64,000 nt of DNA, taken from assembly GCA_964187785.1 (NCBI GenBank), contig OZ076409.1, positions 48,548,001-48,612,000 of the forward strand. The letters are read 5' to 3'. The notes beneath the pieces were generated by a model. The model was not told where the DNA came from. It did no database searches and saw nothing but the letters and a program-made list of their open reading frames with translations. Both the position numbers and the translations under genes were made by a program. This DNA is from Amphiscolops sp. MND2022 (lineage: Eukaryota). Of the stretch, positions 27,822-62,554 are shown one piece after another; positions within the stretch are counted from its first letter, which is position 1; every line of letters begins with the position of its first letter.

Positions 27822-30800
27822 TGTAGAATAGAGCATGGTAAAGGTCACGATGTCATGTAAGATTACATAACTTAATACCATACTGTCTATGACCATATTA
27901 CATAATGTACCTGCTAACATAGTACTGAAGAATACTGTATATCTTAACAACACATTAACCTTAGATTCAGTTACAATTCAGTATTACATTCCTTACTCCT
28001 TTTGACTATAACCGATAACATACAACATGGCGCAGTCAGAATGAGTCAAAAGAACGAGACGAACCCGACAGAAGTGTCAAGGAGAAACTCCTCAAGCGAA
28101 GAATCCGGAGAAAAGAAGGGGAGATCAACAACACACCAAAAAATAACGTTACTCATATTTGAGAAGAAGACCATTCAAAAGGCCAAACTATGGTGACGAC
28201 GATTCATACAATATGTCAAAATGACACAGAAGATCGATTTAAACAGAAAGACAACGGACAAAGAGATTATAGAAGAATAAAGAGAAGAACTGGAGATAAA
28301 AATAAAGGATATCTTTTTCTGGGCTTTAGGAGAAGAAGCGGTCACCGAAATGACAAAAACAGTGAGAGACAATGACACAAACAAAATGAACATTAATCAG
28401 CTATATTCATTATTTAGACTCCACTTCATCCCAGAAAGGAACAAGTTCCATAGTCGAGCCGATTTTTTCGGAATAGTACGAGAACCTAGTGAAACAGCTG
28501 AAGATGTATGGACCAGAATTCTTCAGACAGAGAAAAACTGTGAATTTGACAACGTTACACCAGCAGAGCTTATCGCATCGAAGTTCCTGTCACTAATTGG
28601 AAGGTCAACGGGAGACTATGAACTGAAGAAAAAGATACGGAAAAGCAACATGACAATCGAAACCATTACCGATCTTATACATGAGTATATGTATGACCGA
28701 TTAAATGATTCAAACAACTCAAACGACGGAACAAACGTAAAACATGTACAGGAAAGGCCCAAAAGAGAAAATGGTCAGAAAAATCCAGTTACGAAAGGAA
28801 CAAGAAACGACCGGAATATCAGAAACAAAAATACATAGATAACCGGTGTGGACAGTGCGGAGCACCTAACTGGTCAAGACAACACATTTGCCCTGCCAGG
28901 ACGGTAGAATGCAGAAACTGTAAAAAGAAGGGACATTATGAAGAAATGTGCAGACTCCCAAAAAGAATACAATACGTGGATAAAATATCATCCTCAGCTG
29001 AAGAAGACGACTGAGACTACAACAAAATACAAAGTATCAACAACAACAAGAAGAAAAAAGAAGATTTCTTCCACGCAACGCTATTGGTCAATGAATTTCA
29101 TAATAGACAGCGGATCACCAGTCACACTAATACCCCAAAAGTTTTTAAGGGCACTTCAGAGGTGACGAAGCTAAACACAAACTACAAAGACGTAAACGAC
29201 AACAAAATTGAATTCCGGGGACAAACATTGGCAACGGTGAAAACAAACAATACGACGCTACATTTACCATTGCTAATCACTAAAGCAAATATAACACCGT
29301 TAATGGGACTAGACTGGATGAACCGGCTAGGTATAGCTCTCAACACACACAACAACGGAGAACGTCAAAATACACAACATCAAACTGGACGAAACCCAAA
29401 AAAGATCCTAAAATTAAAAAAACGAATTCAAGGACCTGTTTTACAATAACACGGAAATAAAGAATTTATCAGTAAAGATAAATCTGAAAGCAGACGCAAA
29501 AATAATACAAAAGAAAGGCAGATCAGTGCCGATTCATTTGCAACAACAAGTAGCCAATTAAATCAAACGATTAATAAAGAACGGCTATCTTGAAAGAGCA
29601 ACTGAGATAACCGAAAACTGCTTTGTGAGCCCCGCGGTAATTACAGTGAAGAAAGACAAATCGGTAAAAATCGCCTTAGACTCAAGAAAATTGAACGAAG
29701 CAACAATAAAAAGAAAAGCACAAATGCCAAACATGGAAGAGCTGATATCGAGAATATCACGAAAAATATTTGAAGAAAAAGAATGTGAAATATGGCTAAC
29801 AAAACTAGATTTCGATTACGCATACGGACAAATCAAACTGGACGATGAAACAAAAAATCTCTGCATTTTCACCATTACAGGAGGAGACTTCACGGGATAC
29901 TACCGTTTCCTCAAAGGATTTTACGGACTGGCAGATATACCAACCATTTTCCAGGAACGGATAGACAAAACACTAGAATTCAAACACCCCGCTTGGTTGG
30001 ACGACATCATAATTGTAACCAAAGGAACAATTAATAAACACGAAGCGGAGGTAAAACAGACAATGGAAAAGCTAGAAAAAGCCGGATACAGACTACACCC
30101 AAACAAATGCGAATTCTTCAAACAGGAAACAGAATGGATTGGACACAGAATAGACCAAAACGGAATCAGACCTTTACAAGATAAATTGGAAGCTATCACA
30201 AAGATAGAAATACCAAAGAACGAAAAAGAACCAAAATCATTCTTGGGCGCAATCCAATACCTGGCAAAATACATAGAAAACTTGTCAGCACAAACAGATA
30301 TCCTCAGAAAATTACTGAAAAAACAAAACGAATGGAATTGGACACAAGAACATACGGAGGCATTTAACAACTTTAAAAAGTTAATAACACAACTGCCATG
30401 CTTAGCCCACTACAACGCCAATAACGAAAATATCCTAACAACGGGCGCCAGTACAAAAGGATTGGGGGCAACATTATGGCAAAAACAAAAAGACGGAAAT
30501 TTAAAGCCGATCGGATTTGCAAGTAGATTTTTATCGGACACGGAGAAAAAGTACGCAATAAAAGAACTAGAATTGCTAGCTGTAGTGTGGGGATTGGAAC
30601 ATTTTCGTCTATACATATACGGAAAGCCAATCGAATTACTTACCGATCACCAAGCACTGGAGCCGCTAATTAAAAGGAACAGATCAAATAAAACCTATAG
30701 TGCAAGATTAACAAGATGGCTGGATAGACTGGCCCACTTTGTTATCAACATAAAGCACATCGCTGGAAAACACTTGACGTTGACGGATTATTTGAGCAGA

Positions 30801-33800
30801 AGACCAGTAGCAAAGCCTGTACCAATAGAGAATTACGACGAAGAATACGTAATCAATTGCATAATACCACTACTGGAGTTCATTAACACGCATGGCAGCA
30901 TCTTGGATGAAAAGAAAGTGACGATGCAAACGGAGAATAACACAGCGAAGCAAAACAACAACCAATCACAGACAAGAAGCGTGAACAAACAACCACTCAC
31001 CATAAATCAGATAAACGAACGCAAGCCATTCCAAACATTACAAACGAGCAAACCAAACAATTCACACCACAAATTTGACCACCGTTGAATCAACATGGAC
31101 ATTAAAACAATCGAAAGCATTGAGAAAGATGATCCATCAGAAGATACACTTCGACTTACCAGCAGATAGAGAGAAATTACTAAACCGGGCGATTATCGAT
31201 TCACTCAAGGACAGTGGAGAAAATATGCACCGCCGAGAACATTGAAAGCCGAATTAAAAAGAATCGAAGTAGACTTATGGCAAAGAAGAAATAGACTAAT
31301 CTGGCAGAAAATGGAGAAGAATAGTAAAAAAACACCGGAAGAAGTAGCACGAAAAAAGGAGTTCCACAGAGTAATTGAGAAGATCAGAAATCTGCCTAAA
31401 CGAGACGAAGCAGACCCGAGCAGCAGCAACACACAGCAACAACAACAACCACAGTACGAAGAAGAGGACATAAATGTAGACCAGAGAGATGAAACGGAAA
31501 CAATGTCCTCCGATTCAGACCAAACAATAGCCGTACCGGCAATAAACTTTAAACGATATCTGGGCGCAACCAGTGTGAGATACATTCAAATGGGAACCGC
31601 AAGCAAAGTACAAGTGGGATTAAGAAGAACAAAATTTTTCAACGGACCTGCGAACAATCGCAGACGAAACTACCAACGATGAAAAGCTAATAAAAACACT
31701 GGTTTGCCTTGAGAGAAGAAATTTTGAACAAATCCCTGAAGAGTACAAACAATACAAAAACAACCTCTCGACACGATTTGGAGTCGTCTTTTACGACGAC
31801 AAAATAGTAATACCAAAGCCACTTGGACAAACCGTCATTATGTTATTGCATAAAGGACACCCGGCGATCAACAAAATGAGCCACGCTGCCCGCCCATTCT
31901 GGTGGCCTAAACTGACAAAGGACATCCAAACAAAATGCAATGAATGCATTCCCTGCAAGATGTCAGGTAAGAGTATTAAACCACAATTACCAATGACCGA
32001 AATTAACTACTTACCACCGGCCGAAAAACCAAATCAGGAAATCCAATTGGACTTCATCGGACCAATAAGATTTAGGCTCCGGAGATTTTATATCCTCATA
32101 TCAATTGACCGATATAGTAGATGGCCGGCCGCATGTATATGCGAAGCTCCCAATAGCAAAGCAGCAAAAAATTTCTTAGAACAATACATTGTACTAAACG
32201 GGATCCCGCAGACAATAAGAACGAATAAAGGAACTGCCTTTACCGGAAGGGAATATAGACAAACGTGTAAAAATTTAAATATAAAACTAATATATGGCAC
32301 GCCATATATTCATACAGCGACGGGATTAGTCGAAAGAGGTATAAAAACCTTAAAAGACTTGATGCGAACAAATATACAAGATAAGTGCAATTTGAACGAG
32401 GCACTATACCAAGCACTAATGGTGATGAGAATGACCGTCCTTTCAAAAACAAAAGAATCACCATTTGAAAGACACTATGGCAGAAAGCCAAGAACGGAAC
32501 TTACAAACTATCTAAACCTACCAACGGGTAATAATGAATATACTTCAGCCCAACCGGAGACTCTCCAAGTGTACTCCTTCAACAACAAAAAAGGAGGCTA
32601 CGACCAACTGATTATGAAGACGCCCAGAAAACTCAAATGTGACGTGAGCAATAACTTTCCATACAAATTTTTGGAAAAAAGACAAACAAAAAACAAATTC
32701 GAGAGCGAATATCAAACAAAACCAAAAACAGCGGTAGCTGGAACAAAACATACCATAACAACCGATACAAACAAAGTAATACACCGAAAATTGGCAAGCA
32801 AACCCCTACCAAATTCATTTCAGAACCCACTCTCTCGCCGCGGGGAGAACAGGAGAGGAATAGATGGGCGAATAATCCAGATGTCCCTACCATCACTGGA
32901 GACGGAAGATACGGACGAAGAAGAAACCCAATCAGAAGGGGAAAAAGAAAGCACACCGGTAGCAGAAACATCGACAGAACAGATGGACGAAGAGTTCGAA
33001 TTCACGCCACCAACACCGATCAGAAGAGGCGGACTAGAGTCACCAGGAGCAGGTAACTTGAAACTTCATGTGGAAAACATGAATGAACAACAACTAGAAC
33101 AAGCTCTCGAAACAATCAATGAGAACCCAACAACCACCACAATCATTGACAATAACGGTAACGAAAATTACATAAAAACAGAAATAAATGAAATTACAAA
33201 TACAAACGAAATAAATAGTAATAATAACTAACCAATTAGAAGATCTTAAAGACTAAGAACAAATAATCCAGTAATAAGATTTGGAAACCCGTTAACTCAT
33301 TAACGTTTACAGGAATCACCGTTGACAAAATTAACGAGAAGTTCACCCAGTCGCAGAGCGAATAAGAAAGAACCGGACGGATAAGCAGAATACGCGAAGT
33401 CACACCCAGTGACAAACATAACGGAAGAAGAGCGAGGATCCAGAAGTACTACCTGGAACTTTATGTTCATTCATCACAATCAAGTGATGAAAACTAAAAC
33501 ATTTTCATGTATCAGTGTGTATGTGTGATAACTTTATTTTGTTAAAACTTATACCGTATTAACATTTGAGTCATTATTAACAGATTGTACAATCTGGCCC
33601 GTAAAGGGGGGAATGTAGAATAGAGCATGGTAAAGGTCACGATGTCATGTAAGATTACATAACTTAATACCATACTGTCTATGACCATATTACATAATGT
33701 ACCTGCTAACATAGTACTGAAGAATACTGTATATCTTAACAACACATTAACCTTAGATACAGTTACAATTCAGTATTACATTCCTTACTCCTTTTGACTA

Positions 33801-39700: not shown

Positions 39701-40449
39701 TGTGCGAGTATTCCCTTCTGAAATGGCATGACATTATTCAAAAAGTGTCAAACCTTTTTCTTCAAACCTCTATGCGTTTTCATAGTGCAATGGCTACTCT
39801 TGAGCCTCAAAATTATGTCATTGCTAGAACAGTTGGGACGGAAAATATCCTGCTGGTCAGCAGGCGTCTTGTTTTCGCCTATTCACGTCAACAACCATGT
39901 GTTAGAAGCTTTGAGTGCGGATTAGAACCAAGCATGCTTAAAACGACCTTGTTGAACAAATCAAAAAGTATTGCCTGCTTCAGTTGTTGGCCATGAACTG
40001 AGCGACAAAATGTAATCAACAAGTTAGTATAAAAGAGTTTAGAGCTCGAGCAAAGCGAACTGCTACGTTCCTGGACTTCGTTTTCTTGTGAAAACTTGAG
40101 AAACAAAAGTCGCTTTTTATCTAAACTTCAGCTTTTCTTTTTCTTGAAAAAAGTTTTCTTCATAGTTGATCAATATTTTTTCTTCTGGTTCTTTTTCTCA
40201 AAACCTACTTTTTGTAACAGTGTTCGCTTACCTTAGTCAAACTACTAAATATTAACTTCAAAGAACTTACATGAAAACCGTACAGATCAGGCATTATTTG
40301 CAAACTTTGTATTTCAAGCTATTGTGTGTAACTTATAAGATTTTTGCAAAAATGGCCAAGCAGTTCAACTAGTTTTCTCAAGCGTTACACAGTAATCACA
40401 ATTCACTTACATCTTCTCACACATTGTTCACATCTTTTACGAAAATGAT

Positions 40450-43651: not shown

Positions 43652-45742
43652 TATTTCTGCCCTTGATCTTGAACAAAATAAGGATTGGGAAAGATTCGAT
43701 GGAATGTAATGAAATATTGGCAAGTTAAATCTGGTTTTGGTCTTTTATAAGAAAAAATTTCAATTTTAGAATTTGGAATGAGAGTTTCCATGAAAGTTTT
43801 GCCACAATCATGCAAAGTCAATTGAAGCCTTTCAAGATCTTGGTTTGTATTGCGCCAGATCCGAATTTTTCTTGAGGCATCTTCCAAGATCAGAAATTCT
43901 CGTGGGAATTCTTTAAAGTATTCGCTAGAATAAGGCATTATCTTGCAAGATCTTGGACGCGAAACCTGCAAGAAATGTGTCGAAAACTTCTGAAAGCTTA
44001 ACTATAGTAGAACAAGCCTGGAACGGCCCAAGTCAGCGCACCGCTAAAGGCACAGAAGTGTACCCGGAGACGTGACTTTAGAATGATTTGTTGACTAAAG
44101 ATTTTTCGAAAATTGAAAAAAATTATAGTACCGAAATCCTGACCCTAAAACTACATTGGACGCAAATTGTTTGAAATTTTCCCGAAGAATCGATAACGTT
44201 ATACAAGAAATGAAAACGCTATATCCGAGCTTTGAAAACAATACATCCGGACGTTGCATTGTTATAGAGTATATAATTATCAGATGTAGCATAGTTTTTT
44301 AAATGTAGCATTTGAACAACATTCATGGATATATTCGTCCTTTAGGGTCAATCTACAGCTTCCATTTAACTACCTTTTTTTGAGTGATATAATTCCACTA
44401 AACAACTGATAACAGAAGTGTTTCAGCCAAAAGTTCGATCTTTGTTTGGGAAAGTTAATTGTGCGGAACAGTTGCTCCAAACCTACGGGTTTCCTGGCTG
44501 CAGCATTATCTTTGAGCAACGTTGATTACGACGCTTTTCTTCTTGACAACCATTTCCTGTAGTTCGTTCGTTACCGTGTCCCTCTTACTTTCTTGTAGGG
44601 CATGTTCTTTTACAAGTATTGCCGAAAAAGTTTGAGGAAAGGCGTTTTTGGCTGCTTGTCAAATGATGATATCAATTGAGAATCTCGGATGGTTACCTTT
44701 TCATGTCGGTAAAAGGTCGATAATTTGTCTCTGTAGGTCGTTATAAACTTTTTGTAAGCGTAAAAAGGAATGAACTCCATTTGTCAAGGTCAACAAATCA
44801 GCTAATCTCAATATATAATTACTCGTACTGACAAAAACTTGCATTCCAGGACTGTCAAGGATTCTCAAGGACTGGTAAGGACTTGTCAAGTTCTAGACCA
44901 GTCCTTACCAGTCCTGGGAAATCCTGCTGTTCAGAAAGATACGCTGCTCAGGACTGGAACACGGAACACCCCAAAACCGATTCATGACTTATAAAGGCCA
45001 GAAAGGTGGTAGATTAGGTCGCAAAAACTTTTATTGGGTGCGGGAAAACGAACTTTTCAGTATATTATCTTACAAAAATCCTGAAAATAGTTTCTCATCA
45101 AATAATAATCTAAGGAGAACTCGAAAATATCGTTTTTTTTGCTGGCCAAATGAAAAACAGTCGACACTAGCAGGGCTACTAAGGAGCATGAAAAAGTCCC
45201 ATTCTACATCCCAATAATACATCAAATGAATGAGCAAAAACTATGTTGGATTTCTCGTACAATGAGATGTAAGGAGGGAGGAGGAAAGCTCATTTTCTAT
45301 TATTATAACCGGTACTATTGGACAGAGACAGAGTCTCGACTATGGGAGTAGTACGGGAACAGTTAGAACCGGGGCAAAATTGATGCAAAATACGCTTGAA
45401 AGCGACAGGAAAAACACGCAACTCGCTTTTGCTACTCAAATCGAAAATGGCCTCATCCTATATGCAACTTCCATATTTCATTGAAATTTCCCAAAAAAGC
45501 TAAGGACTTACCCAGGACTAGTCAGAAATTGCGATTTTTTTAGAAAAGTGGGGTGTTGTATTTTCACAAATGAGATGTGTTCTAGAACTTTGAATTAGAC
45601 TTTGTAACTAAAATGTGATAGCATCGAACTCAATATGATATAACAGTTTGTTTGTCTATAGTTTTTGTTTACAAAATTAGACAGGTAGTCTACGACCGAA
45701 ATACGATAGAGGTCATATTGATCGCATGAACCGTATGGCATT

Positions 45743-46260: not shown

Positions 46261-46655
46261 ATCGAAGCTTTCTTTTCTTCGAACTTCTCAGCGTTTTTAT
46301 AGTGCATTAGTTATTCTTGAGCCTCAAATTTATGTAGTTGTAGAACAGTTCGGGGCGGAAAATATCCCGCTCCTCAGCGGGCGTCTTGTTAATTAATCCT
46401 ATCCAAAAATATTCTGTATAGGGTATGCTACCGTATTTATCCTGTTTATTGGTGTTCCGGTCTGATCGCCTTATTTTATTAGTAATATCGTCACCTTGTA
46501 GAATTTCGCCATTCGTATGTATTTGGATGACGTCGTTTTCCGGATCAGTTATGATACGTGCGTATCTCCCGCCTTTCTGGTATGTATCGTAGCTCTTTCC
46601 GATCTCGTCCGGCATTTCTTCTTCTTCTTCTTCTTCTTCTTCTTCTTCTTCTGTT

Positions 46656-49600
46656 TTATCGCCTTGCGGCATCAGTATCGGTTCCGTTTGTCTTCTTCAG
46701 TAAACTGAGGGTTTTGCATTTGTTCGTTGCTTGGTGTCTTGACATGTTTGTAAGCGCTATCAGGGAATCGCATCTAGGGCAGACTCCTTTCTTCGGGACG
46801 TATTTTCGAGCTGAAGGCAAGTCTTTCTGAGATGTTTCGAGACACTTTTTCATGTGGTTCTTCAGTGTGGCTTCTTGTGTGAAAGTCTTGCCGCATTTCT
46901 CGCATTGAGTTTCTTTTTGTTGCGAGTCGTGAAGCCTTTTCCTGTGTATAGCTAGGCCTGCTTTGCTTCTGCACACTTTGTCACAATTCTCGCATTGAAG
47001 GGTGTTTTCGGTTGGTGTTTTCGTCGATTCCCTTCTGTCTCTGATGATTTCATCGGGTTGGATTACGTGGTTGTGGCCTTGCTGTCTCTCATATTCTTCG
47101 AGGTGTTTTGCTCTGTTCCGTACGAGCGCTCTCCACTTGGTTCGATCGGTTATCAGGTGTTCAATATTGTTGGGATCCTCGCCGGCTTCATTGATAAGTT
47201 TGCGCCAGTATGTTATGGTGTTTCTGTGTGGGAGTTTTTTCGTCTTATTCTCTTCTTCTAGTTTGCTGTACCATCCTAGCACTGCCTGTTTCACCAACCT
47301 GTCATCGTTCATTCTCAGAACGTGGCCCATTCTTAGGAGGTGAGCTTCATCTATCTTCGTTCTGAGAGATGTTACATTCAGTAGTTCTCTGATGTCCGCC
47401 ATAATTAAGTGTTTCTCTTCCATCTGGCGTAGAGGTTGGCCATTCTTATCGCTCTAGATGTATCTATATCTCTTGTCCATGAAAGTCTGCATCCTTTTGA
47501 TCTCTTTCAGCTTGAACGGGCGAACCGATGCATTGAAGAGCATAGTGCTCTCTATGCAGGCTTCCACTACTTTGGCCTGTGTTCGCTTGGTCAGACGACA
47601 TTTCAGGAACCTCCTTTTGATGGTAGCTTAGTTCTTTCCCGCCCTTTGGATGCGTTTTGTTGTGTCACTATTGTTTTCCATCCACGTTCCAAGCATTCGA
47701 ATTTCTGTGTTGTTCTTCTCGTCGCCAAAAACCATTTTCGCCTCTTTGTCTAAGTTCGTTTCGTCTTCAAACTCGAGGAGACATCTTTCCACTATCCTCT
47801 TTCCCTCTTCTACTTCATCGTTGTGACCGATTACTGTTGTATCATCAGCGAAGAGAGAGAGAGCGTGAAAATTTTTTGGCTTGCATCCGAGTTTTGTTGA
47901 CCTCTGCGTTGTGGAGGAAATCTCTTTCCTGGTAAATACGACCATCTGATCCCGCATTGTTTTCCACTTCCCCGGCAGCTTCCTCCCGCTTGCTCTCTGC
48001 TATGCGAATAGCTGCTTGGTGATATATGTTGAAAAGTGCGGGTGAGGTAGCACACCCTTCCCTCAATCCTCTTTCTGGGTAGAATGCTGTACTCACACCC
48101 TCCGCACCTTTGCCCTTGTAGCTCGTGTGCTCGTGGAGGTCCATTAGTTTGTTTATTATGTTCTGTGGCAGTGAGTATCTTCTCAGCAGGGCCCAGAGGA
48201 TCGGCTTGTTTACTCGAGGGTATGCCTTCCTCAGGTCCAGTAATATGGCTTCTGCGTTGTCCGTGACATTTCTCGACCTTCGATACTGTTTGATGTCCTC
48301 ATTTATTCTGACGAAAATCTGTGTGGCGTCTGCGGTAGAGCGGTCAGCCCTGAAACCTGCCTGGTTCTCATCGAGAAGGCTGAGTTGCCCGGACCATTCT
48401 CGTATTCTCGTGGCAAGGACTCTGGCCAGTATTCTGCTCATAATCGGAAGTAGACAAACTCCTCTATAGTTGTTCATGTCCTTTTTGTCACCTTTTTTTA
48501 GAGGGCAATTATTTGTCCGACTTTCAATGATGCCGGCCACTCTTGAGCTCTATCTTCCCACATGCATTGTATTTTCTGGATGATGACTCGTTTGACCTCA
48601 TCGTCGGACTGTTTGATGAAGCGAAGTCTTATTACATCTTCACCTGCCGCCGAGTCTTTCATCTTGTTCATTTCCGCTATTATCTCGGGCGCGTTCAGGC
48701 TTCTCGATACCTTTTCGTTCGCTGCTTTTATGATCTCCTCTCCTACTTGAGAGGGACTGATTCTCTCCATTAGTGGGGCTATTTCCAGCGGGTCATTTTC
48801 ATGACGCTCAGATGTTATCTTCTGGAGGTGGTTTTTGAACTCTTCCTCACTAAAAAGGGGGACACTTGAGCTGTTATTGTAGTTCCTTCTTCTTTGGAGG
48901 AGGTTGAGTGTTGCGTACATTTTCCCGATCTGTCCTTTGGCGCACGCCTTTTTGCATTCCTCTGCCAGTTCGTTCCACCATTCTTCTTCCCTCTCTCTGA
49001 TTTTCCGTTTGTAGATTTTTCGATACGACTTGATCCGCTGTTTCAGGTTTTCCATTCTGTCGAGGTTATTGTCCGCTCGGTTCTGATTCCGTTCTTTCAG
49101 CAATGAAGTCAGTTTCTTTTGAAGTTCTCCGTGTTCATCGCTGTGTCTCGACATCCATGGATTTACCTGTCTGTTGCGGCGGCCACATACTTTGGCAGCA
49201 GTTTCTCCAATCATTCTCTGCAACTTTGTCCAGTCCTCTCTATCGGTTTCCGTCATCTGCTCGATCTCCTTCTTCGTTTCCACTTGGTATTTCGATGTTA
49301 TGTTGGGGTCACGTAGTTTTTCCCAATCAATGTTTGGGCATCGCTTTTTGAAGAACTTCCGTTTCTTCGTACTCAGAAATTCAGGTGACATTACGATCAT
49401 CTTCGCGTTGTGGTCGGAGAGGTTTCGGTGGTTCGCTGTTGACATTTTGCGAATTATTTTCTGTTTGTCTTTCCATTGCGTCGCAAAACCGTCCAGCTCG
49501 TACCACCTCTTTAAACTCTTGTTAAACCACGTGCCTCTGAAATTATGCGGGTACTGCGAGTTTATCCAGACGAGCTCGTTCTCTGTCAGCCAATCCAGAA

Positions 49601-50429
49601 GGTCTAGGCCTTGTGCGTTGGATGATCGTAGGCCAAAACGGTTTTCTTCCGCAATGTGGGCGTTGAAATCGCCGCCCATCAGGAAGAATTTTCCGTTTCC
49701 GTGTGTCGTCATTATTCTTTCTACTTCACTTCTCAGATTCTCCAGATCTTTCTCATAGTTTTCCGATCCAGCCACTGGTTGGTAAACTGATAGAATTATC
49801 GAGTGTTCTAATTTTATCCCTGTGACTCTTTCTGTCGCGAACCATTTGCGACCCTGGGATTCCCATAAGGCGTACATTTGTTCAGACAGGAGTACTGCCG
49901 TTTTTTGGGAGTAGATCAGGTAAGAGATCTTTTTCTCGTGTTGGTACGAGCGTATCCTTTTGTCTCGTGTGTTCAGTTCACTCAGGAGAGTGATGCTCCA
50001 TTTCTCTTCCATGCATCTTTTGACTTGTTCGCCGAATCTGCTACCGAACAGGTTCGCCCTGTTCACATTCCAGGTGGCTATTTTTATCTCTGTTCCCTCT
50101 AGTTGGTTTATTAAGGAAATCTTTTGCTTCTCTCTCTTTATTTCTCTTCGTTGTTTCCTTCTACAGCTCGTGTGTCCCGGCCCTGGATTGCTTTCAATGT
50201 CTGTTTCCAGAGCAGAACATTTGTAAACCCTCTGATGTCTTCGGTTGACAAACGTTGCCGATCGGTTCGCCTGTTTTCTTTTTGAAGAGGTGGACTGGTC
50301 GGCTAATCCAGCTACCCTCTGTTCCGGAGAGGCTCTTCCAGTTAGTACCTGGTATGTGCCCCCCAGCCTGAAATTTTTTTTGTCGTCAGAGACGTCCACT
50401 ACGCACCATGCGAGGAGGTTGAATTTCAT
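46656..50429 (-). pseudogene. LINE ORF: APE endonuclease, reverse transcriptase and C-terminal C2H2/C2HC fingers, frameshifted
   Basis: APE motifs ATWNV, SVYQP, GGDFNA, ELD, LSDH; RT motifs NYRGVCLL, QAGFR, DLRKAY, GLREGC, LFADD; fingers CENCDKVC...H...H, CEKCGKTF...H...C and CPRC; split over at least four ORFs. Confidence 0.93.
50178..50201 (-). other. 2A-like ribosomal skipping motif DIESNPGP
   Basis: Matches D(V/I)ExNPGP, in frame, about 30 aa upstream of the APE domain. Confidence 0.75.
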
Positions 50430-50437
50430 CGCCCAGC
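50370..50437 (-). ncRNA. HDV-like self-cleaving ribozyme at the LINE 5' end
   Basis: Reverse complement: GCTGGGC gat GAAATT ca ACC TCCTCGCAT GGT GCGTAGT GG a CGTC tct GACG a C aaaaaa AATTTC = P1, P2, P3, L3, P3', P1', P1.1 GG, P4, J4/2 C, P2'; the first G coincides with the TSD junction. Confidence 0.82.
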
Positions 50438-53400
50438 CCGGCATTTCTTCATCAACTTCGTCATTGTCATCGTCCTTGTCTTCCATATCTCACTCAGCTC
50501 TTCTAATTTGAACTATTCTCAGATTGCCGTTGCAAATGTCCCGTAGGATCTCGTCTCGCTCTCAGTACTTCCTGTCAAGGCCGCAGAGGCAGTGGCGGTT
50601 TTCGGGGGTGTTCTGGCTGACATCGCGGGCGCCGTTGTTTTCCGGTTCTTTCTGTCGGTCTGAAAAAGTGGAACTGAACTGAACGTTCGGGGAATTGTTG
50701 CCCGTGTCTGTTTCTAGTGTTTTCGGTTCCGCTGATTGCGCTTTGTACTTTTGTTTGGAGTCTATCTTCTACAAATTTTTGATTATGATTCTTTTCAACA
50801 AAGTTGGAGTGATATCTTACCGGAACTTTTTTTTGGTGATTTCATTTTCGAGGCTAGCTGTTTCTCTTCGGCTTTAGTTCTTGCCATAATCACATGGTTC
50901 AATGTTTCTCCGTCTGCATCTCGACCGACATAGATCGGTATCTTCGGTCTACTTGGTGCTGAAACATATAATTCTGATCAGTCTGATAGGTATGATTATC
51001 CATCTTTTACACTATTTGTGAAATCGGTTCTCATTTTCTCCCGTGGTGTATTTAAAATGGTGTTTTATTTTGTGCGGTTTGTACTTTTCTGTTTTCTAGA
51101 TTAGTGGTAATTAAATTTTTCATTGTTTTGCTCGTTTGACTGCTCCGTTCTCGGTATCCATTCGGGGTGGGCAATATTCGATTTCAAATTTTCGGTTTTC
51201 ACAAAAATTTTTATATGCATTTGATATGGATGCTCTCCTCTGACATTATTTTTTTGGTACTCCGTATAAATGAAGTTAGTTGTTAAGATTTGGAGGTTTT
51301 GCAAATTTTCGCCGTCGGCCATCTGCTGAAACGATTTATGCCGATCAATATTTGTATCTCTCCATTCAGATTCTTGTTATGCAATTTTCCAGTAAAATCT
51401 AATAGTCGTTCTTGTCACGGTTCAATTGATGTTTCTAGTTTACCATATTTGTAAAGGAATTAGGTATTTAAGGTGCTTAACTGTTGCAAGGCAGGCTGTA
51501 CAATCCTTACCTTCATGCTCAATGTTTTCCGGAGTTCCAGCCTACAGAAGATTTTTGCTTCGGCTATCATCTTTGCAACTCCTGATTGACCGAATGGTAA
51601 TACGTCCAGTATTCGCCTTCGTGAGTCGTACGAGATTGCTTTTTGGTTGTCTACGAAGATTAGACCCCAGCGAAATGACAGTTCCTTGAAGACCGGTTTC
51701 TATCCTTCCGGTGCTGTATCTCTGTCTTCCCGTCTCATGCTTGACAAGACTCTCGTTCTCTTGGCATCGGTTGCCGTCTTCGATATAAGTGTCTTCAGGT
51801 CCAGCATAAAATCAAATCGTGCTCTTTTGATCCTCTTCCGTAGTTTAGTTGTTCGCCGTAAGCTTGATTACAATCTGATTGATTCGTATATAATGGGCTT
51901 CATTCCCCTCTGTGTGATACTTGCTCAATTCCACTACCGGTAGGTTATCTCCTCTCATAACAACGCTCTCTTCTTTGGTATCTACAGGACTTTGCTCGTT
52001 AACGATTTCTCCATCGTCCGGAATTTCGGGTTTTTCTTCCTCTTCTTCGGGCGCTGCCTTCAGTGGTTGGTATCCACCCCTAAACGGTTAGCTCTTTGTA
52101 AAAACTGCTCGTCAATTTCCGCAGTTTCTTCTCAGCTGCATTTGCTTGGTCTCGATGGTGCGAATACCGTCCGCTGTGATTTGGGATCATATCTCCGCAT
52201 TACTCCCGGTCACGCTAGTGTCTTTCTTCTCTCCACCAGTCATCTAATTTCGGGGCTCTTTTTTCTTCGGCGAATAATCTCCATAGTTTCCCTGGTGGCG
52301 CGGCAATGATAAACGTTTTCACGGTTCGTTTTTGAATTTGAATTTTCTTTAGCTTTGAAAGATGACTCCACGGTGCTAATATCAGACTGCCAGGATGTAG
52401 TTGTCTCGTTTTTTTTTCTGGATTTTGTTCACATAGTATTCATTCTGGAATGTTCCATTTGTTTGTGATTGGTTGGTTTCTTTCTCCTTCTTTTCTCTTT
52501 TGTCATCCGTTTGTCTTCGGTTTTCTGTTTTTCGTGTTGTGATTGGTTGGCAAACATCGAGCCATATTTCGCGTTCAATTGTGCGTCTTCGGTTAAAACG
52601 GTAATTACTTATTCTTCGTCGTATTTGTTTTCTGATGTCGGTCCGCCTACCAATTTTCTGCTCAAGAAACTGATAATATTTGAGTACTGCCGGCCACATG
52701 TTGAACAGCGATATGAAAATATGCTGAAGGATCTAACCATCTGGTAACACTTGCGCTGTGTTCATGCTTGTTACGAATCCGTTTTATTAGCGGTTCTAAT
52801 GCTTGGTGATCTGTATAAGTGTACTTTCGTTCCCTAAAGGTATAATCCATTTTTTTCTAATACCTAAATTACCGCCAGTCTTTCTAGTTGGCCGATCGAA
52901 TAGTTATTTTCGATATTGTTTTAGTATTTGCTACCGAATGCGATCGGTTCAATTTCCCCGCTATCTTGTTTCTGCCACAGTGTAATTCCAGGTAGTGTTT
53001 TTCTAGCGTCTGTTGTAACAATATTAAAGTTTTTTAAATCTTCTGCATAATGTGCCTAGCATGGTGTTTTGGTTAAAATCCGTTTATTTTGGTTAAAATC
53101 ATTTTGTTGCTCGTCTCCCCTCTCTCATGGTTCATTCTTTTCCAGCAGTTTCTGAGTCTGTCTGTCTTTTCCGGTAACTTCGGTAAGAGTTTTGCTAGGT
53201 ATTGAGTTGCGCCGAGAAAGGATTTTAAGGTGGTTTTAATTTCAGTATCATTCATCTTGTTTTTCATTCAGTTTAATTCCGCTTTCGTCAATTTCATGAC
53301 CCAGCCACATTGTTTGTTCCAGGAACAAATTGGATTTTCTTTCACTTTCCCGGTATTTTTTACTCGTATTTCCCCGCGGAATCTTACTTTGTTCTTATTC

Positions 53401-55138
53401 ACATTTTGTTAGCGGTTTGCTATTTTCTGAATGACGGTATTCTCCATCATTTGTTCGTCTGGTGGCAATACTGTTTTTGGTGATCCGGTGTCTTTTACAA
53501 ATTGTTTCTTTATCCCGCTTAATGGTACCATGGCTGTGTATGGTTTTTGTCTGTTTTTGATTCCCTTTATGTCTTTTAAATGGTTTATACTCTCGTCTGA
53601 TTCGCTCATTGATTCGTTCGAATCGTTCAGTTTTCCGTCTTCGGTATGTTTTTTTACTGTTTAATTGTTGTTCATTCTTCGTCTGAATGCTCTTGCGTAA
53701 AGGCCTTTCTTTCCGCATATGTTATAATTTGTCCCCAGTGCAGGGTATTTGTGTATTGAGCTTCAGTTTGGTGCATTGCAAAATCTATATAGTCAGTTTC
53801 CGGTGTTTCCGTTAATTCCGGTTTTTTCATGTTCTTCGTTCTCGTTCCGAATCTCTCCATTTTTTGTTATAGTTCTTCTTTCAATTTTTGTCGTTTTTTC
53901 GTCATAATTAAGGTCTCCGGTATTGTGGTTTTTTGTTTTTCTTTTCCTATGTTGTGTTCTGTTTAATTAATTCGATTATTTTCTTCAGTTTCAGGGTTTT
54001 TTCTTTCATTATTTTGTCTCGTAGTTTTTTGTCGGTGATTGCTGCCATAAACTTTGATATCAGTAACTAATAGGCTGAAATTGTTGTCAAGTTGCATTGT
54101 TTTTCGATCTCAATTTACTGTCTCCAAAACTTTTCCAGTGTTTCATCTTCGGTCTGTTTGCCCAAAATAGGTCTCTCGGTTATGGTAAGTGTTTTGTTTC
54201 GGGAAGTAGTACTCAGTGAATAACCGTATTAAATCTTTCATTTTTAAATTATTGGGTTCCGTTTTATATTCGGCTCTGATTATTTGATAGAGTGTTTCAG
54301 GTCACACTCCCCAGATATAATCTTCCTGTATGGGTTGCTCTTTTCTGGTTCAACCAGTACCCGTAACATTTTCCTCTTCAGCAATGAAGCGATATGAATC
54401 TTGTGTTCTTCTTTGCAGAGCTGCCGGAATGTTTCCAGCCACTATCTCGGTGTAAATACCGGATTTCCGTCCGTTGCTTTTGAGTCTAGGCTCGGTACTA
54501 TTTGTCTTTCTGCCATTGTTGAGTTTGTTTTAATGTTTGTTGTGTTTTTCTTTGAAATTTTGCTAGCTGATTGCGCCAAGTTGTATTCTCACAAATGTTT
54601 TCTAGATCTTTGAGTTTAACTTTGTAACTAAAATGTAATACCATCGAACTCAGAATGTTATAACAGTTCGATATCTTTAGTTTTTGTTCGCAAATATAGA
54701 CAGGTAGTCTACGACCGAAATACTGTAGAGGTCATATTGATCTGGGGAACTTTTTCTTGAGTTATCGTGTTAAAATACTTGAGATGCTCGAGTTATCCTG
54801 GCAAGACATGGGTCCGATAAAGTGACAGTACGGCCGATCTAAACCACAGTATGTCGGAGCCCCAGCGCTGCGATGGAGCCGTAGTGCAACCCTGAACAAA
54901 CAGAAAAGCAGCCAAACCCAACTAAACTTGAAGACATGTTTTATTTTTTGAAGTCATGTAGATGTTAAATATTTTCCCATTCAAAAACATTTTGATTTGA
55001 TGTTAATGTTAAATTAGTCTTTTTGTCATGAATATTCAAAACCTTAAGTTGAGTCATCCTTATATGACGTAACTTCGGGGCTATAGTGCATTTGCTATTT
55101 CATTCATGCAGTAATGATCTTTTTCACTCAATTTGACA

Positions 55139-55303: not shown

Positions 55304-56259
55304 ACACTGTATAGACAATGCATACACGGTGCTGTATATCATTTGGAATACCTTTTACGTCGCGTTATAACTACTTTCCAGGGTCCAATAGGACAATTAA
55401 GTTCGTTTTAAATGTCGTGTTCTGATGATTGCAGGATATAAATAGAATGACGTCCTTTTGACGTAATGTTATTTTTGTATTTTTCCTACCGTGATTTTCA
55501 TAAAAAGTAGTGTCATTCTTTCATTTTCGAAACCAGGAGTGCAATAAGAGAATTCGGAAGAAGTGGTTTCTACCTTCACAGAGTACAGTTGCTTCTTAAT
55601 TGTACCTCTTTTGCCCAATTTGTAAACTTTTCATCCACAACTTTGATCATCAACCGTTTGATTATTTCACCAATTCACTGAAGAAATTCAACTGATTTCT
55701 CTTTTGCAAACTGATGTTTTCAATCGAGTAAAGATGGGAAATAAGAGAAACAGACGTTCTAGAAGATTAGAGACACCGTCCCCTGAGAGAGAAGTCAATA
55801 ATACCCAGTTAGAAACACCCAACACAGGTAATGAAACTTTAACTAATTTAAATGAGAATGTACAAGGAAATCTAGGTGATAACGTCCCAGAAAATCAACT
55901 AGCTGAACCCAGTCAAACTAGCAACGAAATACAAGTTTGGACGCAGATTTTAGAGCAAAAAAGCAATGACAGAATTACCAAAATGAGGGAAGAGATGGAC
56001 AATAAATTAGAGTCCATCTTAAAGGAAATTAGATCCAATAAAAGCATGTCAACAACAACGAATCCCAGGTCAGAAGCAGCTGAAGTCCATAATTCACAAC
56101 CTTCGGGATCCAAGTCTATAGGAGTTCACGCATCTAACTTTGAAAATACTGACTCAGAAAACGAGGACTATCCTCTTAAAGCCTCAGGTTCTAAGGATTT
56201 GAAACATCCTGCAAGACCTTTGTACCGAAATGAGATAGACCTAGACTCTAGGAGACTCT

Positions 56260-56732
56260 AAGAGAGAAGGTTGCGAGTTTTTGTTTGCCAGTTTTTCTAT
56301 TGCTAGTGCAATTTGGTTAACTGGGTCGAGTGACTTTGCTGTCGGATTTGTCGTGTTGTGGTCTGCGTGGGATCCTGTGGTTTCATTTAAAGACTGAGGG
56401 TTTTGTGAGCTCTGTCTATGGAGTTGTCGGTTGGCTCCTGTCACCATGTGATAATCCTCTTCCTCAGAGTCCTCATTTGAGATCATTGTTTCGTCGGACG
56501 AAACATTGATCTCAAATGAGGACTCTGAGGAAGAGGATTATCACATGGTGACAGGAGCCAACCGACAACTCCATAGACAGAGCTCACAAAACCCTCAGTC
56601 TTTAAATGACACCACAGGATCCCACGCAGACCACAACACGACAAATCCGACAGCAAAGTCACTCGACCCAGTTAACCAACTTGCACTAGCAATAGAAAAA
56701 CTGGCAAACAAAAACTCGCAACCTTCTCTCTT
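56260..56732. repeat. 473-bp palindrome (236-bp arms, 1-nt spacer)
   Basis: 56260-56495 is the reverse complement of 56497-56732, with about 3 mismatches. Confidence 0.95.
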
Positions 56733-57656
56733 TCATCCGAAAAACACACTAACATTCAATGGGAAAAATGAAAAAAACGAGAAATTTGAGTATTTCGAAG
56801 ACTTATTCCATACAACTCTTCGAATGCAGCCGAACCTAACAGAAGACATGAAAATAAACCATTTCCATGCCCATCTCAGAGGTTTAGCACTCAGAACATT
56901 TAAAAACATCCAACGTACCCCAACTACAACTTTGGAAGATATCCTAAAAGTCTTCCGCCGGAAATACGTAAAACCAGAATCTAGTGCATCCGCGAAACAC
57001 AGATTCAACAAACTGTCATTTGAACCCGAAAATCAGAAACTTCCAGATTTCCTTGAGGAACTCCAAGAAAGTGCAGAAAAGGCTTTTGGTGATAAAGCGC
57101 ACCAAATGATAGAAAACCTACTCTATGCAAAGATGCCCCCTCATCTGAAAAAATCAATTAATCAGGCATACTTAGTGAACGGATCATACGACCAAATCGT
57201 TAAACATCTTGAAAGGGAGATGGAACTTAACGGTCTCGAAGCTGACGAACCTCTTGTCAAAACTCAAATGACTGTTACTAAAAAAGACCAAAAAACCGAA
57301 AAATCCAACAAAAAACAAACTGAAAAACCCAAAACACAGACTCCAAAAACAGTGCCAGATAAAACCCTCAAAAATGACCAATGCCGTTACTGCAAAGAGA
57401 CAGGTCACATGATGGCTGATTGCCCCAAACTGGCAAAACGACGAAAGCTTGAAGAAGACCCAGAGGCTGAAAAATGCCAGAACTGTAACACACCTGGGCA
57501 TCAAGAAGAAAACTGCTACTTTGGTGCTAACATGGAAAACCGCCCACCCAAGTGGACCCTAACGGAAGCCCAAAAGAAAGTCATTGAGACATACAAACAA
57601 GCACGAAAACCGATAAAACCCAAAGTAGAACGACAACAACAATCCTCTTCAAAGGA

Positions 57657-57663
57657 TTTAAAC
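57657..57663 (+). promoter_or_regulatory. -1 ribosomal frameshift slippery site T TTA AAC
   Basis: X XXY YYZ heptamer in the gag frame directly before the gag TAG; the pol frame is -1 and open across it. Confidence 0.85.
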
Positions 57664-60600
57664 TAGAAACGCCACGCCCTAAAAACCAGCACTTACAGTT
57701 GAACGACACGAGCCCGCAAGACGACTGGCAGCGTCATGTGGACACAATAAGCATTCAACTCAAACAACTTACAACCGAAACAGACACAAAACCTCAAGAC
57801 CTAACAGACTCCGACGACAATGAACCTCCCCAAGAGTCCTATTATCAACTCTTACGGGATGCACCTGACAACTACCTTTCAGACAATACACGAACGACTG
57901 AGTCGCAGACAAACAACACACCAGAAAATCACCACACAACAACCCTTCCTTGCAATGAACAAAAACAACCCCTCTTAGATGAAGACATCTCTAACCATAT
58001 ACAGTTTGACCATGAACGAAATCTGTCATACCTACCGATTTCAACTTCTCTGACTTTGAAGCGAAAACGACACATGTACTATATGCCGATGGACTTCGAA
58101 AAACTCACTCTTGATGGACTCATCGATACAGGAGCCCTGACAAGTGCAATTTCTGAACAGGACCTAAACAAAATCAAATTACTTGCCAACGAGGCAATAA
58201 AAGAGACTGGCCCACCGCCAAATTTCCAAATTATGGTGGCCAATGGTCAATTAGAAGTACCAATCGGCACAGTACTACTTGAATTCGAGGTCGCTGACTT
58301 CATGTTACGAGAAAATTTCATCATAATGAAAAACCTTCCAAACCCATTAATCGGACTATGCTTCCTCAGAAGAAATAACGCAATTTTTGATGTCACTCAA
58401 GGCATCTTAACCTTCCCATATCTCTCAATGCAATTAAAACCAGACTCACAAGTTGCTATACGACAAGCAACGCCTCTATTTGCCGAAAACACATACACTT
58501 TACAACCAGGAGAAACCCTCGCAATAGCAAGCAGAATGCCACACCTGTTAGACCACGATGCAACAGGAATAGTTACACCTTCACCACAATTTGAAAATCA
58601 CGATAGCATATTTATCACATCGTCACTCAGTACGGTTAATAACAACGCTATCGGGTACCAAATCATTAATTTCTCTGAACTCCCACACACAATAACCTGT
58701 GATACCCATTTAGCGGATTTCAAAATCCTCACTCCAGAACAGATAAAACATATACAACCAGTAGATCCTGCGATGTTATCCTTCATGATACAACACGAAG
58801 AAACAACTGAGATCTACATTAATGAACTCCTGAAAGTCCCTCCGCAAAACCCAGACCAAGAATCATATTGGTTTCCCACACCAGAAGACCCCGGGGATCC
58901 AACAACATACACACCAATCCAACAACGAATATATAACGAACTCCTTGAACTGAAGGAACTCGGAAAACTCAACCCACAAGAGAATGAAACATCCAGAAAA
59001 TCATTTCTTTCAAACTTTGACTGGTCTGACACAACACTCAGCCCAGAAGAACGACAACAAGTCGAAGAAATTCTCATTGATTTTCACGACATTTTTGCAA
59101 GACATCGCTTTGACATCGGAACAAATCGCAAATTCAAAGTAAAACTTACACCCAATGACGACAGACCAGCTTATAGCCAAAGTCTACCAACCCCAATCAA
59201 CCTGAAAGACGACATCACAGTAGAACTAGCACTTCTACATAAATATGGAATCATAACAACACTACCGTTTTCGAAATACGCAAGTCCCATCTTCGCACAA
59301 CGAAAACCAAATGGCCGACTCCGCCTTCTGGTGGACCTTCGAAAATCAATAACTTAATCACAGAAGACTACATCAACAACAACCACCCGGTGAGCACCTT
59401 ATCGGATGCAGCACAACACATGGCTGGAAAGAAACTTTTCTGCAAACTCGACTGCTCCCAGGCTTACCACTGCCTTCAAATGGCAGACTATCAATCCATT
59501 CAGATGCTTGCTTTCAATTTTGCAAGCCGAACTTTTGCTTACCGCAGACTTGCGCAAGGACTGAGCAGATCGCTCTCGGCATTTTCAAGCTTCATGAGAG
59601 AATACCTCGATAGAGCCATTAAAGCCGATCAATGCGCACAATATGTAGATGACATCGGAGGAATTGCAGCAAATGATGCAAAACAATTATGTGCGAACAT
59701 CAGAACTGTGTTCGAGTGTATCCGAAACGCTGGATTGAAACTCACCATGTCCAAGTGCCATTTCGGAGTCAAACAAGTCGACTTTCTGGGCCGTACAATT
59801 ACACCAACAGGAGTTGCTCCTCAAGCCGACAAAGTCAAGGACTTCTTGTCAAAACTCAGATTCCCCAAATCCAAAAAAGCACTTCAGCGCTACATTGGAT
59901 TCCTAAACTATTATCGGAACTACATTCCACGCCTCTCTGAAAGACTATCCCCGTTTTTCCAGCTTCTCAAAGAAACGACCAAATTCTACGTACCAACGAA
60001 TCTAGTAGAAGAATTCACCAACCTAAATAAACTTCTTGAAAATTCATGTCAGTTAGCTTTGAGACAACCCCTCAAGGACAAACAACTCATAGTCATGTCC
60101 GATGCAAGCTTCACAGCTGCAGGATATGCTATAATGATAGAAGATGATCGAAGCCAAAAACTTCAGTCTAAACGCAAAACCTACGCACCCATAGCATTTG
60201 GGTCCAAAACTTTTAACCCAACACAAACCAAAATGTCTATATATGCAAAGGAATTCCTCTCCATATAATTTGCGTTTGTTGAGTTTGGTCACCTCATGTG
60301 GGGAAGCACTTTCCCAGTCATCGTGTTCACTGATAATAGATCAGTAACACGCTTTTTCCAAGCAAAACTCATTCCCCCAGCACTCTGGAACGCATGCGAT
60401 TATGTTTTACAATACAACTTTGTAATCGCCCACGTTGCCGGTTCGATGAATACTGCAGCTGATTTTCTGTCAAGGACAGAAGTAAACCCGATCGAGAAAC
60501 TCGAAATGAGTATACGGAACGATATCCAGACGAAAGCAATAGAAGTCAACATACAATCATCTGGAATAGTAGAAGAAGAACAAATCTACATTCTCCCCGA

Positions 60601-62554
60601 TGATGAATTAGACGAAAACAAATTATGGGAAGAAAAACAAAACGTACGAAATCAAGCCCTAAACGAAACCCACAACGATCCAGAAAACAATGTAACTGAA
60701 CTTCAACAATTCCATAAACCCACATCTGGGTTGAACCTGGCTTCAGAAGGACACTTCCGAGACAACGCCAGAATTCGCCTTGAACAAAACAATGACATCG
60801 TTCTCAGAAACCTCAGAGCCAAACTAGAAGGGAACCCCTTCAATGAAAACGATTTGGCCTCTGATTACCGATACCAACACTACCTCCAAAATATCACAAG
60901 AATCGAAATTAAACAAGAGGTTCTGACACGTAAATACTATACAGACACAGGAACCACTTCGCACTACCAAATCCTACTACCAGCTCAACTTCTTGAAGAA
61001 TTCCTTCAAGCCATGCATGGCCATAACTCAAACCATCCCGGCATCACGAAGATGATACAAGAAGCCAGACAAAAGTATTACTACCCATGTAGAGCCAAAT
61101 ACATCAAAAAGTGGGTGACTAATTGTCAAACTTGCATTCAAACAAAGAGAATCAACAATGACCTCCTCAGGACAGAGTTGCTCAATTGCCCTGAATGGGA
61201 TCTCGGCCCTGAAGATATACTTCAGATGGATATCTTACCCAATCGCCCGCCCAGTGGCGGATACGACCATATAATAACAGCTATAGACGTTTTTTCCCGA
61301 TACCTGTTTGCATATCCAGTTACTCGCATTACCGCTACAGCAGTGGCCCGTGTCATTATGGACATACTATGCAAACATACATACCTTCCAACAACAATAA
61401 TCACCGACCTCGGAACACAATTCAATGCTCAAATAACCCATGAAGTCGCAGCAGTTCTCGGAATTGAGCTTAAACACGCAACGATGAAGCACGCTCAAAC
61501 AATAGGACTCCTAGAAAGAACTCATGCATCAGTAAAAACACACCTTAAAGCTGCAACGGGAGAATTCCGAAACAACTGGCACAAGTTTCTCCCGCTAGCA
61601 ATCCTGAATCACAACACAACCTATCATGCATCACTTGGTTGCGAACCCTCACGAGTTTTCCATGGGCGCATACCACATAACATACTTGATTATAAACTTG
61701 GTTACAATCCCAACCCCAAATATCTACCACAAACTGACGTAGCAGACGAAGTACAAAGAAGAATGAAAATACTTCTTGACCAAACCAAAAAGAACATAAT
61801 GCAACCCTATCTTAAATACAAGGCATATTACGATAGAAAAGCAAAAGCATCTCCACTGGAAACAACCGACTACTGCTACATCTTAAACCCGAAAGCAGAT
61901 ACACAAGCATCAAAGATACCATTCCGGGAGTTCCGATGGCAAGGTCCCTATAAAGTTGAAAAAGTTCTTCCCAACAATAACTATATAGTTAGAAGGCTAG
62001 GAACCAACAATACCCAACTGTTACATCGAATCCGTTTGCGAAAATTTACCCCGCAAGCTCCTCTAGCTGACATCTTTGTCAGAGAAACTGATTGGCAAAA
62101 GGATGATCAAATTTCTGTGGCGCATGATGATCTTTACGCCCAATCATGGAATACAAACTTTGGCCCCAACCCATTCGAAGAAAATCCACCCGATGTTACA
62201 CTTAACGATGACCATGTTGAATATGTACCTTGTCAAGTACCCGAAATTAACCACCCTCCCTCCCGCGAAATTTCAAAAACGAGTGGGGGGAGCCCAGTGG
62301 AACAGACCACTGATCTAGAAGAAGAAATTAATAATGAAATTTCCCAAGAAACTCATAGTGACGAGATAAATACTCCCCAAAGCACCCAAAAAGACAAAGA
62401 TACTACACCAGAAGAAAGAACCCCAAAAACCCCAAAAACCCCAGAAAACCCACAAAATACTCCATTGCAAGAAAAACCCATTAACACCCTTGGTGAAAGA
62501 TACAACCTGCGACCTAACCCTAACCCAAATTACTCTGACTCTTACAGATACTAA
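57663..62554 (+). pseudogene. pol: pol of element 5 (PR-RT-RH-IN) with one frameshift and one stop
   Basis: IDTGA; LDCSQAY, AQGL, YVDD; SDAS...TDN...ADFLSR; HGH...H...CQTC, MDI, TDLG, LER; WQGPY; frameshift at about 59345, stop at 60266-60268. Confidence 0.96.

Follow-up and report, generated by a model that had tools for sequence, protein, structure and literature searches.

A compact HDV-like ribozyme fold with a predicted cleavage site at the 5' junction of an RTE-like LINE

Results

The LINE and its surroundings

The window, a 64-kb stretch (64,000 nucleotides) of the Amphiscolops sp. MND2022 genome, contains an RTE-like LINE of 3,816 bp on the minus strand (50437-46622), bounded by a 13-bp TSD whose copies are exact repeats at 50438..50450 on the 5' side and 46609..46621 on the 3' side. 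The 64-kb window holds the 13-mer, GAAGAAATGCCGG, at exactly two places (50450-50438 and 46621-46609, with 0.01 occurrences expected). Since the 5' copy ends at 50438, G50437 is the first base inside the TSD, where the first-pass annotation had placed G1 of the ribozyme. A single ORF (46656..50435, minus strand) has domain matches to an APE endonuclease, a reverse transcriptase (RT) and C2H2 zinc fingers. The minus strand also carries a (GAA)10 tail (46622..46651), with two further GAA units belonging to the TSD, and just before the tail a short 3'-terminal hairpin with a GCAA loop (46661..46670). This hairpin is identical in L012, a related locus whose family is ~37% identical to that of the window in protein, and is a candidate RT recognition signal. 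The features of an APE-type non-LTR element are thus present, namely APE and RT, a simple-repeat tail and a TSD, with no terminal repeats. No Pfam match to RNase H was found in the pieces of the window element or in six full-length relatives, and no second copy of the LINE was found within the 64-kb window. Compared with the intact relative P0145, the ORF has three frameshifts and two in-frame stops, so that the copy is, to judge from its reading frame, dead as a retroelement. It diverges from the longest X1 contigs by about 1-3% with few gaps.

Elements of the RTE clade have a single ORF, no RNase H and a microsatellite tail; the window LINE likewise has a single ORF, no RNase H match and a microsatellite tail. 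It also carries motifs that we take to be of RTE type, the same basis on which P0141 and its relatives, which have no clade name, are called RTE-type here. The LINE is collinear with P0141, itself a long branch in our quick tree. The label RTE-like reflects these motifs and this collinearity, and not placement by a reference tree.

The surroundings of the insertion are rich in Ty3/gypsy-type LTR retrotransposon remnants, with matches to gag, protease, RT, RNase H or integrase at 7551-10905, 28281-33231, 51132-53355 and 55662-62554. One of these, a decayed pol remnant on the minus strand (51132..53355, listed as context only), lies 0.7-2.9 kb upstream of the LINE on the same strand and is a possible source of read-through transcription into it. 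Both this remnant and the LINE are enclosed by a pair of direct repeats (45555-45723 and 54580-54742; 84% identical, 9 kb apart), which are either partial LTRs or another repeat. The LINE also interrupts a minus-strand ORF of acidic codons (50489-50438 and 46608-46310), which is in frame at the 5' side of the element and has no Pfam or Atlas match; its 3' part has an 84% match to window positions 39756-39873. The flanks of the related loci L003 and L016 likewise read as D/E runs in the frame of the element, which probably stems from target preference.

A nested double pseudoknot at the 5' end

The first 69 nt of the element (50369..50437, minus strand) form a compact HDV-like nested double pseudoknot, supported by covariation and a covariance model, with predicted cleavage 5' of G50437. 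P1 pairs 50437-50431 with 50404-50398, with a G·U at position 1 and a G·G mismatch at 50433/50402. J1/2 follows, and P2 pairs 50428-50422 with 50375-50369. P3 (50419-50417 with 50407-50405) is closed by L3 (50416-50408), the GG for P1.1 is at 50397-50396 and P4 spans 50394-50384. The candidate catalytic C of J4/2 is C50382, which we take to be the equivalent of HDV C75; the J4/2 C and the U and G of L3 presumably have the catalytic and structural roles known from HDV-like ribozymes. All the elements claimed in the first-pass annotation are therefore located, in order, on the minus strand. Its P2 is present as well, at 7 bp instead of the 6 bp given. According to the accessible part of PMC4908430, cleavage in such ribozymes maps to the first P1 nucleotide, P1 is 6-7 bp long, and a 3-nt J1/2 is tolerated with slow cleavage.

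Relatives and their junctions

An N-terminal protein search returned 21 long relatives, 20 of which were aligned with the window protein (alignment A1). This alignment retrieved 25 metagenome loci, 13 of which reach far enough upstream to include a 5' end. The same ribozyme type as in the window is found in four of the 13 (L002, L003, L016 and L020), and in two more (L004 and L023) parsing by eye gives a form whose P1 is 6 bp. Five loci that make up one family (L006, L007, L008, L009 and L011) have an atypical nested pseudoknot, and the remaining two (L013 and L015), which appear 5'-truncated, have no ribozyme. By eye, the atypical family (L006:41-125 and its four fellow members) shows the HDV-like helix order, starts with C, has TTTAAGG as L3 and AA in place of the GG after P1, and lacks both an NPGP and an open leader frame; it may be a variant in which P1.1 consists of U-A pairs, or else a degenerate ribozyme. 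A quick 33-row tree places the window together with L002, L003, L012, L015, L016, L017, L020, P0124 and P0145 at a support of 100, and the three ribozyme families of this ten-row clade are about 40% identical in protein.

The junctions of several copies fall at G1. L016 and L020 are identical over the 110 nt shown from G1 and diverge from -1 upstream. A contig in X2/X3, apparently a single data set, follows the window over 50360-50438 before passing into unrelated flank, and thus represents a second insertion; as this copy too has G at -1, its junction can be placed only to within 1 nt. The base at -1 is G in the window, L002, L003, L004 and L016, and T in L020 and L023; the base before P1 in the L006 family is T in three loci and G in two. 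A G at -1 cannot extend P1 because it would face a G, and the GAT/GAA-rich flanks of several loci may explain its frequency. A search of viral contigs gave three unrelated matches and no relatives. Genome contigs yielded a single decayed copy lacking its 5' end. A decayed LINE of this group, eukaryotic in kind, sits on a contig of a bacterial MAG (L001, G001 contig C38), which suggests host contamination.

Covariation and model searches

Covariation was assessed in four rows from three families (window, L002, L003 and L016, two rows being from one family), L020 having been left out because it is identical to L016. In this alignment, from which the structure was itself derived and in which P2 of L016 is misregistered by one column, 91% of cells are paired and seven of 26 pairs are changed on both sides. 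The score of 0.333 is matched by none of 500 shuffles, and slid controls are 28-44% paired. The double-sided changes fall in P1, P2, P3 and P4. The P1.1 pairs are possible in all four rows and are nearly invariant, with a single one-sided change. G1, the U, C and G of L3, the GG after P1 and the C before the A's are invariant throughout, and the first pair of P1 is G·U in three rows and G-C in one.

A covariance model (R2) was built from the three relatives with the window sequence left out. Run on the window, it recovers 50437-50369 at 42.3 bits (E about 3e-10); of the 19 matches listed, the second-best scores 11.3. The same model gives L004 a weak score of 13 bits and returns neither L023 nor the L006 family, which is why those parses were made by eye. 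Our own motif descriptor has one match in the window, the ribozyme site, and three in 236 shuffled windows, a lenient control because the descriptor was written after the site had been seen. Rfam searches returned no HDV-type family for the window site with the cutoff relaxed to E 10, nor for any of 14 related loci at E 1; none being above its gathering threshold, the ribozyme is not placed in a named Rfam family. Plain folding with flanks, by a method without pseudoknots, gives an alternative structure with z = +0.57.

State of the ribozyme in this copy

The ribozyme of the window is the weakest of the four aligned, with 6/7 pairs in P1, 7/9 in P2 and 4 bp in P4, compared with 7/7, 8-9/9 and 5-7 bp in the relatives. 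The G·G in P1 is a G-C pair in all three aligned relatives and is the likely cause of weakening; in PMC3774820, mismatches in P1 are said to be uncommon and to go with a loss of cleavage. The first-pass annotation had attributed possible weakening to an elongated A-run in J4/2. This explanation is rejected: the span between the ends of P4 and P2 measures 15 nt in the window, as it does in L002 and L003, and 14 nt in L016. What looks like a long run consists of an ordinary linker and two P2 positions left unpaired, the extra A's occupying the place of the relatives' last two P2 pairs. The suggestion that this copy is weakened probably holds by way of its helices, and we expect its ribozyme to be slow or inactive.

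An open leader, a second structure and a 2A-like motif

The frame of the long ORF has no stop between the beginning of the ribozyme and an NPGP motif in four of the six elements tested (window, L003, L016 together with L020, and L004), and is broken in L002 and L023, as it also is in L006. Among 5000 dinucleotide shuffles of each of the four open elements, 191, 4, 104 and 90 stay open, and in the window clade's three open members each of the other two leader frames is interrupted by 2-6 stops. An ATG at nucleotide 9 (50427..50429, minus strand) is in frame with the long ORF and is the only in-frame ATG inside the window element upstream of the endonuclease domain. It is in frame in three families (window, L003 and L016/L020) whose P4 lengths differ by 3 and 6 nt; L004, L006 and the decayed L002 have it in another frame. 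Predicted N-termini that fit a ribozyme read from such an ATG occur in two of 20 relatives (P0134 and P0137), compared with one of 696 control methionines; cluster-mates of P0134 read another frame at this place. An AUG is present at this position in the HDV genomic ribozyme too, so the one at nucleotide 9 may be structural. As a loose end, the G-run 50364-50359 appears to be one base shorter in the X2/X3 copy, which would shift the frame unless compensated.

Downstream of the ribozyme lies a second conserved structure (50268..50320, minus strand), consisting of a stem (50320-50286) with a 9-nt loop and conserved in the window, L003, L004, L015, L016, L023 and L025. Over these seven rows, seven of 13 pairs are changed on both sides, a score reached by none of 500 shuffles. 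The GCC of the loop could pair with a GGC near 50270; this pairing is conserved, with no double change. The structure has no Rfam match. A role as a -1 frameshift signal was rejected, a U-run before the stem being present only in L004 and L023 and not in the window clade. In this sister group (L004:246-275, L023 near 300 and P0122-P0139) a U7 run encoding FFWQ or FFRQ lies ~6 nt before the stem and resembles a -1 frameshift signal. Mimicry of a codon-anticodon pair as in an IRES was likewise rejected, the frame of the GGC differing, by eye, between the two groups.

Upstream of the endonuclease is a predicted 2A-like motif, DIESNPGP (50178..50201, minus strand), which in the window lacks a G before the D. 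The D(V/I)ExNPGP core is shared by the window, L002, L003, L015, L016 and L020 and by the proteins P0145 and P0152. Among the 20 proteins P0121-P0140, NPGP is found in 18 and the D form in none, and none of 120 P0141-type proteins has NPGP. By the accessible text of PMC3708506, a 2A motif by itself is not enough for skipping activity.

Discussion

Our results provide a model for how the 5' end of this LINE family is defined. We consider it highly probable that, at the level of the family, read-through RNA folds into the pseudoknot, C50382 promotes a cut 5' of G50437 and TPRT copies to that end. What is directly shown, and forms the basis of this explanation, is the covariation of the fold, its invariant core and the junctions at G1. 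In active members of the family the pseudoknot would cut the element RNA from a longer host transcript just before G50437, with C50382 as the putative catalytic cytosine and a product that would carry a 5'-OH. The RNA would come from read-through, here possibly by way of the upstream gypsy remnant. The APE would nick GAA/GAT-rich targets and prime on the tail, and target-primed reverse transcription would stop at G50437. In a second, less certain layer, ribosomes probably read through the ribozyme, and the leader peptide so made would be shed by the 2A-like motif.

That short helices fell into this arrangement by chance might be argued from the failure of Rfam models to match, the unremarkable folding energy and a descriptor tuned after the fact. 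Against this stand the match of an independent model at an E-value of about 3e-10 exactly at the edge of the TSD, and the same motif at the 5' ends of relatives. Together with the covariation, the relatives-only model and these 5' ends refute the chance reading, which we regard as very unlikely; the earlier proposal of an HDV-like fold with its predicted cleavage site at the LINE 5' junction is supported by covariation, the independent model and the junctions of relatives. The 5' segment could also be mainly an internal promoter or protein-binding hallmark, with transcription starting at G1 and cleavage absent or secondary. A copied cap is a source of an extra G in L1, and the frequent G at -1 could reflect one, although the target accounts for it in the window. 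A capped RNA would also make it easier to use an AUG 8 nt from the end, and in L1Tc the same 77 nt act as promoter and ribozyme according to the accessible part of PMC3383444. However, with a DNA promoter there would be no reason for crossing helices to change in a compensatory way, or for the C at the catalytic position to be invariant, and we consider this reading improbable; promoter activity and cleavage are in any case not mutually exclusive.

A further alternative concerns the window copy alone and is compatible with the main explanation: the ribozyme of the family is real, but this copy no longer cleaves and is a relic in a dead element. The G·G in P1 where relatives have G-C, the weakest helices of the four, the frameshifts and stops of the ORF and its divergence from the longest X1 contigs favour this, whereas all core residues are intact, and P2 of L016 is also imperfect beside P3, so that the imperfection is possibly a family trait. 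On balance we lean slightly towards the relic, and it is somewhat doubtful that the window copy still cleaves measurably. For the family as a whole we retain the model of self-cleavage at the junction.

Cleavage at the 5' junction is already published for R4, L1Tc-type and RTE elements (PMC3774820, in its accessible part), and the ribozyme alone would therefore add one more family. Less expected is the open frame through the ribozyme, combined with a covarying second stem-loop and a 2A-like DxExNPGP before the endonuclease. A tentative reading, which we judge unlikely as a whole, is that a so far undescribed lineage of RTE-like elements has arrived by convergence at a three-part 5' module, where translation starts at the nucleotide-9 AUG on cleaved, uncapped RNA, the ribozyme and the second pseudoknot are read through, and the 2A sheds the leader. 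If true, the ribozyme would double as coding sequence, and StopGo would give the endonuclease-RT a fixed N-terminus. The leader is of more weight than the ribozyme and bears on the translation of uncapped, ribozyme-terminated retrotransposon RNAs. With three families, about 270 nt, a single defined AUG and a single 2A motif, the lineage is a compact natural set in which point changes could separately knock out cleavage, initiation and skipping, and it supplies short HDV-type ribozymes missed by Rfam models. Among the papers listed by our literature searches, no title or opening of an abstract describes a ribozyme-plus-2A module in RTE elements or an ORF that begins within such a ribozyme. Both are weak negatives, and this lineage may be listed in Webb 2009, in Ruminski 2011 or in their supplements.

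HDV-like ribozymes of RTE, Baggins, R2 and R4 elements were reportedly described in Webb 2009, Ruminski 2011 and Eickbush 2013. The window LINE resembles these elements in having a 5' nested double pseudoknot on a single-ORF non-LTR element with a predicted cut at the junction. It differs from them in its compact 69 nt and lack of an Rfam match, and in an ORF frame that spans the ribozyme, whereas theirs is placed in the 5' UTR in the accessible sources. PMC6765202 and PMC3774820 report such ribozymes from RTE and Baggins elements, along with a role in initiating translation, and PMC13725137 deals with ribozyme-dependent translation in RNA viruses. The accessible text of PMC6765202 also has RTEs co-transcribed downstream of LTR elements, and the gypsy remnant upstream of the window LINE suggests the same arrangement.

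L1Tc and Ingi are similar in several respects: as far as the accessible sources go, they combine an HDV-like ribozyme at +1 (Pr77), a 2A motif N-terminal to the APE and a single ORF. L1Tc has C-terminal zinc fingers, which the window LINE shares. Ingi has an RNase H domain after the RT, in contrast to the window LINE and six full-length relatives, in which no match was found. The window LINE further differs from both in its GAA tail, which replaces poly(A), and in its motifs, taken to be of RTE type, and from L1Tc in that the ribozyme of the latter lies in the 5' UTR, as the accessible sources place it. The L1Tc ribozyme and promoter are covered, in their accessible parts, by PMC3185411, PMC3383444 and PMC4035085. 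2A sequences are listed for the LINEs Rex1, Crack, L2, L2A, CR1 and Ingi in the accessible text of Odon 2013 (PMC3708506), in which the terms 'RTE' and 'ribozyme' each occur 0 times; 'RTE' likewise occurs 0 times in PMC12338488 and bioRxiv 10.64898/2026.06.17.732966. The window LINE resembles the elements of Odon 2013, as described in that accessible text, in that DxExNPGP lies in the N-terminal part of one long ORF.
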